Below, one piece after another: positions 24,861 through 25,391 of a stretch of 36,403 bases of DNA. The first letter of the stretch is position 1. Each line of letters begins with the position of its first letter. The notes under the pieces are model-generated. The model was not told the DNA's origin. It saw only the letters and a list, made by a program, of their open reading frames with translations, and ran no database searches. The stretch lies in the IMG/VR virus record IMGVR_UViG_2675903318_000021; one strand, 5' to 3'. The stretch is from a virus (taxonomy: Duplodnaviria; Heunggongvirae; Uroviricota; Caudoviricetes). Both the position numbers and the translations under genes were made by a program.

Positions 24861-25391
24861 ATGAAGAAAGATTCATATCCTTATTTGATTTGCATGACTG
24901 TTTCAGTGCTAGGGATTATTTTCCTCTTTTACTGGTGGAGGGCAGATATCTACAGGATTACATATCTTAATTCGCGTATATCCAATTATTACATCTTGTG
25001 TAGTATGGGTATGTCCTTTTTCTTCTCCTTGTTTCTGGTGAAGAGGGGGGTAGTGAAGCAAAGTGGCTGGAAAGGACTGTCGGAATACCTGAAGGTTTAT
25101 GCTGGCTCTTGCATTCTTACAGGGATATTCCTGATTATCCCTCTTATGATGGTGACTTATTTTTTACCAGGAGTAACATCATCATATGTTGCACCGTATG
25201 AGTATACATCTGGTAGTTCAAGAAGCTGTTCCGGAGCGTTTGTTGATGATCCCGAACTGCATAAAAATATTCTTATTTGCTATCCGTATGGTAACTATGA
25301 ATATGACAATATTATCTATGTTGAAAAGAAAACTAATGCATTGGGCGTTGTTGTGACGTATGCACAGACTGCACGAGACGATGCTGAATAA
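24861..25391 (+). CDS. AT-rich membrane protein of unknown function (three predicted TM helices plus ~80-aa C-terminal soluble domain); cargo in the cos-proximal slot
   Basis: 176-aa ORF, strongly AT-rich relative to flanking phage genes; hydrophobic segments LICMTVSVLGIIFLFYWW, ILCSMGMSFFFSLFLV, AGSCILTGIFLIIPLMMVTYFL. Confidence 0.6.
   Translation: MKKDSYPYLICMTVSVLGIIFLFYWWRADIYRITYLNSRISNYYILCSMGMSFFFSLFLVKRGVVKQSGWKGLSEYLKVYAGSCILTGIFLIIPLMMVTYFLPGVTSSYVAPYEYTSGSSRSCSGAFVDDPELHKNILICYPYGNYEYDNIIYVEKKTNALGVVVTYAQTARDDAE

Follow-up and report, generated by a model that had tools for sequence, protein, structure and literature searches.

Does a small membrane-protein gene lying between the packaging and replication genes of a P2-like prophage protect its host from other phages? 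We have examined this for the gene at 24861-25391 of a 36,403-nucleotide stretch of viral DNA (IMG/VR record IMGVR_UViG_2675903318_000021), the whole of which we call the window. The window represents a prophage of the Xuanwuvirus group (P88-like Peduoviridae) that occurs in Escherichia coli O103:H2, O45:H2, O121 and other Shiga toxin-producing E. coli (STEC). The locus was already catalogued as hotspot content, and the label of candidate exclusion or defence gene that an initial annotation gave to it seems a reasonable one. We find that the open reading frame (ORF) is a true gene under purifying selection, not a chance ORF, and that it is swappable accessory cargo in the published cos-proximal hotspot of P2. 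A role in superinfection exclusion is the function that we tentatively prefer.

An accessory gene in the P2 hotspot

The ORF begins with ATG and has 176 codons, specifying a protein of 176 amino acids (aa). The identical coding sequence is called by PGAP/RefSeq in STEC genomes as the hypothetical protein WP_000711113.1. An in-frame TAA at 24846-24848 shuts the frame upstream, so an upstream extension is excluded. Comparison with the 79%-identical allele of lambdoid phages gives a nonsynonymous rate dN = 0.123 and a synonymous rate dS = 1.05, i.e. a ratio omega of 0.12, and comparison with a Salmonella allele gives omega = 0.15. Codons 1-64 taken alone give omega = 0.11-0.18. The 112-aa versions in the databases result from a start call at an internal GTG (V65), and since purifying selection acts on codons 1-64 as well we reject these versions as a separate protein. 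A 200-aa lambdoid annotation likewise reflects an upstream start call; the conserved protein starts at MKK. The family is conserved over the Enterobacterales, and its homologues are confined to that order and are all of about 170 aa.

The gene lies in the interval between gpQ and gpA, which is a defence hotspot of P2 and the locus of old and tin (Rousset et al. 2022, PMC9122126). The features of this region of the window are as follows.

21533-23284, plus strand: terminase
23284-24330, plus strand: portal (gpQ)
24357-24381: perfect 11-bp inverted repeat CGGGGCATAAA/TTTATGCCCCG, 27 bp past the portal stop codon, a hairpin that starts the non-coding stretch of 530 bp between portal and membrane-protein ORF
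24724-25479: stretch 76% identical to lambdoid copies (434, mEp332 and ybhC-site prophages), by DNA comparison
24783-25494: 712-bp cassette replacing 258 bp of P88_4B11 (L019:47-304), by base-level comparison
24817-24825, plus strand: TGgTAAATT, candidate extended -10 element some 35 nt ahead of the start codon, from alignment
24861-25391, plus strand, stop codon included: membrane-protein ORF WP_000711113.1, a predicted inner-membrane protein of an orphan family, from ORF call, PGAP, hydropathy, selection and family
25482-25864, minus strand: ead/Ea22-like pseudogene, a frameshifted remnant
25928-27203, minus strand: partition cassette of Plasmid_stab_B (ParR-like) and ParM (StbA), next to gpA
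27280-30147, minus strand: gpA-type replication endonuclease

The initial annotation had noted that the gene occupies the slot where P2 carries old and tin, that its GC content is well below that of the neighbouring phage genes and that it converges with the neighbouring operon. Each of these observations holds. The ORF has a GC content of 38.6% (39.5% at third codon positions), whereas the window averages 52.1% and the phage genes on either side have 52-58%, and it lies in a trough of low GC at about 24800-25800. The opposing minus-strand block comprises the ead/Ea22 remnant, parR, parM and gpA. The gpA-type endonuclease is longer here (955 aa in the mechanical ORF list; 2841 bp, about 946 aa, by PGAP) than gpA in the P2-like loci examined from Salmonella, Enterobacter and Klebsiella (818-864 aa).

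Identity of the backbone with P88-like phages and with Citrobacter phage Shae_phiSM stops at about 24783 and resumes at about 25925. The 258 bp replaced by the cassette include the 3' end, the last 73 or so codons, of ead/Ea22; the cassette with the membrane gene is thus derived, and was gained at the expense of ead/Ea22. The remnant at 25482-25864 has lost its C-terminus to the cassette, and its frame is shifted besides by the loss of 1 bp from a run of C near 25649. The same gap holds an intact 196-aa ead/Ea22-like gene in P88_4B11 and an unrelated membrane gene, memP (PHROG 2284), in Shae_phiSM; homology between memP and the present gene was rejected on comparison. The full arrangement (at least 80% of a 1.7-kb query, 24300-26000) is present in 62 of 1242 matching E. 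coli genomes. The gene shares with morons a composition distinct from its surroundings (38.6% as against 52% GC) and, with its replacement junctions mapped, presence or absence among relatives.

In the hotspot table of Rousset et al. WP_000711113 is listed 10 times as 'hypothetical', 'Ead_Ea22' 81 times and 'StbA' 489 times. A link between the membrane gene and the adjacent parMR genes, for which the initial annotation had proposed a co-occurrence check, is not supported by their distribution. With 489 entries for StbA against 10 for the gene, the partition cassette is backbone of the Xuanwuvirus lineage and not a partner, and the gene is also present in P2-like phages and lambdoids that have no parMR. 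The presence of a ParM/ParR-like cassette within an integrated P2-like prophage raises a separate question, that of plasmid-like persistence of these phages.

Copies of the gene are present in the same slot and orientation in the prophages of four other P2-like lineages, where the order is portal, gene, small minus-strand ORF and gpA. These are found in Salmonella (65% and 55% identity), Enterobacter hormaechei (56%) and Klebsiella michiganensis (55%), none of them with parMR. The 79%-identical allele is carried by the lambdoid phages 434, 2B8 and mEp332 and by prophages at the ybhC att site, including one O157:H7 prophage. In these it is placed between xis and exo and runs on the other strand from the pL operon. 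Comparison of these copies indicates that the gene moves horizontally among temperate phages that are unrelated, in which it takes up two classic accessory positions.

The stretch shared with the lambdoid copies comprises the gene with 137 bp upstream and 88 bp downstream, travelling together. Its leftmost 60 bp or so (24724-24783; L003:4864-4925; L004:1741-1800) is P2-like cos-proximal backbone, common to P88-like phages with other cargo. Because the lambdoid copies carry this piece of backbone, the alignment suggests that the cassette moved from the P2-like hotspot into the xis-exo region of the lambdoids. Overall, copies are present in 999 of 5426 complete E. coli genomes. Of these 77 are at least 99% identical and 918 are 60-80% identical (about 78% in the rows sampled, with both of the sites examined being lambdoid). 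The locus is a junction-resolved example of one cassette moving among P2-like hotspots, lambdoid early-left regions and bacterial chromosomes.

Direct repeats occur at the junction of backbone and cassette (24751-24797), namely AAAaTTGTGC / AAAtTTGTGC with 10-bp spacing followed by ATCGTGCAGT / ATCGTGCTGT. Other P2-like backbones have kept these repeats, which could be a terminase or cos-binding site, an operator or a recombination hotspot. The heptamer TTGTGCA is not enriched across the window as a whole. In the K. michiganensis hotspot, genes for 790-aa (weak AAA_16 match) and 279-aa proteins lie between the portal and the membrane gene (L038:1281-4623, minus strand). Neither was matched by PADLOC, and this two-gene block may be an uncatalogued defence system.

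Predicted architecture of the protein

The initial annotation had described a polytopic membrane protein. We find three hydrophobic segments using Kyte-Doolittle windows, and three transmembrane (TM) helices in an AlphaFold2 model built on 45 family members, which has a mean predicted local distance difference score (pLDDT) of 90.4 and a predicted TM-score (pTM) of 0.77. The predicted parts of the protein, all encoded on the plus strand, are listed below with the evidence for each.

24873-24947: TM helix 1, residues 5-29, with the invariant W26 (AlphaFold2, hydropathy, alignment)
24948-24971: loop 1, approximately residues 30-37, predicted periplasmic (AlphaFold2, alignment, charge)
24972-25043: TM helix 2, residues 38-61, the least hydrophobic of the three (AlphaFold2, hydropathy)
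25044-25070: loop 2, residues 62-70, within the Lys/Arg-rich region 61-78, predicted cytoplasmic (charge)
25071-25163: TM helix 3, residues 71-101 (AlphaFold2, hydropathy)
25164-25388: C-terminal five-stranded small beta-barrel, residues 102-176, predicted periplasmic (AlphaFold2, alignment, charge)

The strands of the barrel are modelled at residues 105-116, 125-130, 135-140, 151-158 and 162-171, and the C-terminal domain modelled by itself adopts the same fold with pLDDT 88. Loop 1 has a short strand at residues 34-36, in which T34 and L36 are near-invariant. The C-terminal domain is the most conserved region of the protein, with the motif LPG..S.Y...Y...G...SCSGA.V.DP[DE]L...I.IC.P.GNY.....V.K..N..G. 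The invariant residues are W26, G104, Y109, C123, G125, D130, C140, G144, K156 and G162, among which no catalytic motif is apparent by eye. In the model the domain reads as a generic small barrel, and is probably of a binding type.

The charge distribution was calculated over the 45 sequences. Residues 61-78 contain a mean of 4.2 Lys plus Arg with a net charge of +3.4, loop 1 has a net charge of +0.3 (computed on residues 27-41) and the N-terminus +1. On the positive-inside rule these charges predict a cytoplasmic N-terminus, loop 1 outside, loop 2 inside and a periplasmic C-terminal domain. That domain has a mean of 2.04 cysteines over the same sequences, and its two conserved cysteines, like the charge bias, speak for a place in the periplasm. 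C123 and C140 flank a beta-hairpin in the model, and are plausible partners in a disulfide bond. A lipoprotein or a cleaved signal peptide was considered and rejected, as no lipobox or AxA site was seen by eye and Cys11 is not conserved.

The initial annotation found no recognisable family for the C-terminal domain, and wider searching bears this out. Remote-homology and structure searches returned only PHROG 1416, which matches residues 90-175 with E = 2.6e-45. By this match, phage copies of the C-terminal half were already clustered. The profile, of 90 positions, spans just TM helix 3 and the barrel, and probably reflects short start calls such as those of the 112-aa versions. A Pfam-A scan at E ≤ 1 gave four sub-threshold chance matches (DUF6057, Vps8_C, DUF4271 and SCAMP), and NCBIfam gave no family match. 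Searching PDB sequences with the family profile gave chance TM matches only (BetP at E of about 0.4). A HMMER profile run against 1.84 billion representatives returned 61 clusters at 50% identity, all from the family itself, with no remote annotated relative. Foldseek found no match in the PDB below E = 0.03, and none among the viral structures of BFVD, where the best TM-score was 0.35. Literature searches on the protein accessions returned no mention in text. By these searches the protein is a conserved hypothetical of no characterised family.

Proposed superinfection exclusion and its alternatives

The perfect hairpin at 24357-24381 is probably the terminator of the terminase-portal (P-Q) operon. 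In that case the cargo gene, which follows 480 bp further on, would need a promoter of its own. The candidate -10 element is kept as TGnTAA(a/g/t)TT in the lambdoid, Salmonella and Enterobacter copies, and its stretch is gapped in the alignment of the K. michiganensis copy (Kmich_L038). A scan of 24300-26000 with Rfam found no RNA family.

We tentatively favour a reading in which the membrane gene is a moron expressed in the lysogen and conferring superinfection exclusion. The topology, disulfide, lysogen expression and exclusion function that we infer would fit together as follows. The gene would form a self-contained accessory module in the cos-proximal hotspot of the Xuanwuvirus prophage, with the protein made in the lysogen from its own promoter. 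The protein would be placed in the inner membrane by its three TM helices, with the N-terminus in the cytoplasm. The compact C-terminal barrel, probably stapled by C123-C140, would face the periplasm and pack on periplasmic loop 1. From there it could interfere with genome delivery by incoming phages, acting either on the phage ejection or tape-measure conduit or on a host inner-membrane entry factor. We favour exclusion because of the hotspot context, the predicted periplasm-facing location in the envelope and the precedent of P22 SieA. We also count in its favour the position of the gene, its swappability, its recurrence in P2-like and lambdoid slots, the flanks that travel with it, the conserved -10-like element, the hairpin closing the P-Q operon ahead of it and the confidence of the structural model.

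A number of results weigh against exclusion. A strict sigma-70 scan of 24300-25950 found no promoter, and there is no convincing intrinsic terminator after the gene. None of the 5027 defence-protein models of PADLOC-DB 2.0 gave a family match at E ≤ 1. Pfam, including its superinfection-exclusion and colicin or polymorphic-toxin immunity families, gave no match at the gathering score, and the function of PHROG 1416 is unannotated. Homology to P22 SieA (type A only) was rejected, as hhalign of the 45-sequence profile returned a probability of 0.8% and E = 0.07 over 30 TM columns. In the hotspot study over half of the cloned candidates gave no defence (PMC9122126). In those of its supplementary files that were checked, WP_000711113 is present in the hotspot catalogue only, and not among the assayed systems. 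Lastly, diverged single copies of the gene (31-55% identity) exist in ordinary chromosomal or megaplasmid settings. The settings found outside phages are these.

Serratia marcescens: between ptsG and DUF4180-mntR
Pantoea agglomerans: on a megaplasmid
Cedecea neteri, Citrobacter portucalensis, Erwinia and Pseudescherichia: further non-phage homologues
Proteus mirabilis: in a variable island (L035:4345-5504), directly after the MliC lysozyme-inhibitor gene

These copies, together with the lack of a match to any defence model, lead us to keep other readings open. The initial annotation had set a conserved host housekeeping protein as the case that would defeat its proposal. The non-phage copies approach such a case without amounting to it, being sporadic single orphans and mostly low in GC. 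Their neighbourhoods vary by genus, and the whole family makes up only the 61 clusters found among 1.84 billion representatives. A peptide-pattern scan, using one pattern only, found 11 of 185,579 species genomes. In most hosts the gene has a GC content below that of the DNA around it, as in Serratia (37.8% compared with 60.6%). Because they are sporadic and mostly of low GC relative to their surroundings, the chromosomal copies look acquired and not core.

In Serratia the homologue follows ptsG at a distance of 235 bp, and both genes point the same way (L005:4333-6510; L031:3333-5510); this adjacency may be coincidental. PtsG is an inner-membrane factor required for entry of HK97 DNA. One of these sequences is taken from a PLSDB 'plasmid', pE28_003 of S. 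marcescens (NZ_CP042515.1, L005; 67 kb, linear), which carries the core genes pabC, mltG, tmk, holB, ptsG and lpoB and looks like a mis-assigned chromosomal contig.

Since the diverged single copies are in non-phage sites, a cell-autonomous role in the envelope is also possible. The protein would then be a factor of lysogenic conversion or of the host envelope, unrelated to phages, its periplasmic binding domain modulating transport, stress signalling or colonisation, and it would be carried for the benefit of the host. We consider this rather unlikely. There is no conserved partner or neighbourhood across the genera; the 81- and 119-aa ORFs of Salmonella, the 56-aa ORF of the lambdoids and the 195-aa ORF of the Erwiniaceae were considered as partners and rejected, being lineage-specific and of no family. 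The sporadic, mostly low-GC nature of the chromosomal copies argues in the same direction, and the copies in phages are specifically in slots known for anti-phage cargo.

The P. mirabilis island bears on a different possibility, that of an orphan immunity-type protein guarding the envelope from a toxin of competitors that acts on the membrane or in the periplasm, for example a pore-forming bacteriocin, a type VI secretion system (T6SS) or contact-dependent inhibition (CDI) effector, or a tailocin. Pore-forming colicin immunity proteins are usually small polytopic inner-membrane proteins, and a distribution as orphan single genes fits orphan immunity genes. The island places the homologue beside the MliC gene and near an Imm33-like gene, and also holds a PAPS_reduct plus DUF3440 (IbrA-like) gene; it is the sole context hinting at an immunity-type role. 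Yet the Proteus homologue is the most divergent member of the family, at about 30% identity, and its context may not transfer to the others. No toxin or secretion gene (T6SS, CDI or bacteriocin) adjoins the homologues in the approximately 20 contexts examined, PADLOC found no match among the neighbours of the homologous loci, and the immunity families of Pfam do not match the protein. On balance this explanation is improbable.

The protein might instead be an abortive-infection effector, depolarising or permeabilising the inner membrane on sensing infection much as RexB or SieB do. Its polytopic membrane character and its place in a defence hotspot would suit such a role, and many abortive-infection effectors are small TM proteins. 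However, the gene stands alone, with a partner sensor in none of its contexts, the sole soluble domain of the protein is predicted to be periplasmic and thus away from intracellular cues of infection, and the protein has no homology to SieB, RexB or the effector models of PADLOC. We regard it as highly improbable. Least probable of all is a role in the cycle of the phage itself (lysis timing, virion release, DNA entry or control of lysogeny), for although the gene adjoins cos and the packaging genes at a position conserved in several P2-like lineages, most close relatives are without it (as the 62 of 1242 genomes show) or, like P88_4B11 and Shae_phiSM, have other cargo, it has passed among phage types that are unrelated and also into non-phage DNA, and it is probably transcribed apart from the late and early operons.

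If superinfection exclusion is correct, the gene would add to the single-gene exclusion factors one that is new in structure and very common. This would matter for the susceptibility of clinical E. coli and STEC to phages, and hence for phage therapy and typing, and would offer a way into the inner-membrane step of phage DNA entry, which is poorly understood. Were there no phage phenotype, it would simply join the conserved hypothetical envelope proteins that are carried as morons.

Comparison with known systems

A broader proposal is that the protein is the founding member of a new and widespread family of inner-membrane exclusion proteins. These would combine three TM helices with a disulfide-stapled periplasmic OB-like barrel, and would be shared by the P2-like and the lambdoid prophages. 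About 18% of complete E. coli genomes have the gene, the O157:H7 and O103:H2 lineages included. The proteins would block entry of heterologous phage genomes at the periplasm or inner-membrane step, by a mechanism unrelated to those of SieA, Imm and gp15. Put in this full form we judge the proposal to be somewhat unlikely.

A functional parallel would be SieA of P22 (PMC10883804). It is an inner-membrane protein of 162-164 aa, predicted to have three TM helices, which prevents DNA injection by blocking delivery at the periplasm or inner-membrane step. The two proteins share a prophage location, a transcription unit of their own (putative in the present case), a length of about 165-176 aa and three predicted TM helices in the inner membrane. 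They differ in that the soluble segment of SieA is between TM1 and TM2 and SieA has no C-terminal beta-barrel, whereas the present protein has such a barrel. In its genetic form the gene resembles phage morons such as that encoding HK97 gp15 (PMC3594210), being an AT-rich insert, present or absent among relatives, that encodes a small membrane protein. Unlike gp15 it is of another protein family, and its promoter and terminator are putative. Small OB-like or cold-shock-like beta-barrels, including the membrane-anchored DUF1093 proteins, are also among the nearest known systems. With the other cargo of the P2 hotspot (old, tin and the systems of Rousset et al.) the gene shares its locus between gpQ/cos and gpA and its variability among close relatives. 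In contrast to Old, Tin and the validated hotspot systems, its product is an unrelated, single small membrane protein that has no nuclease, ATPase or sensor domain.
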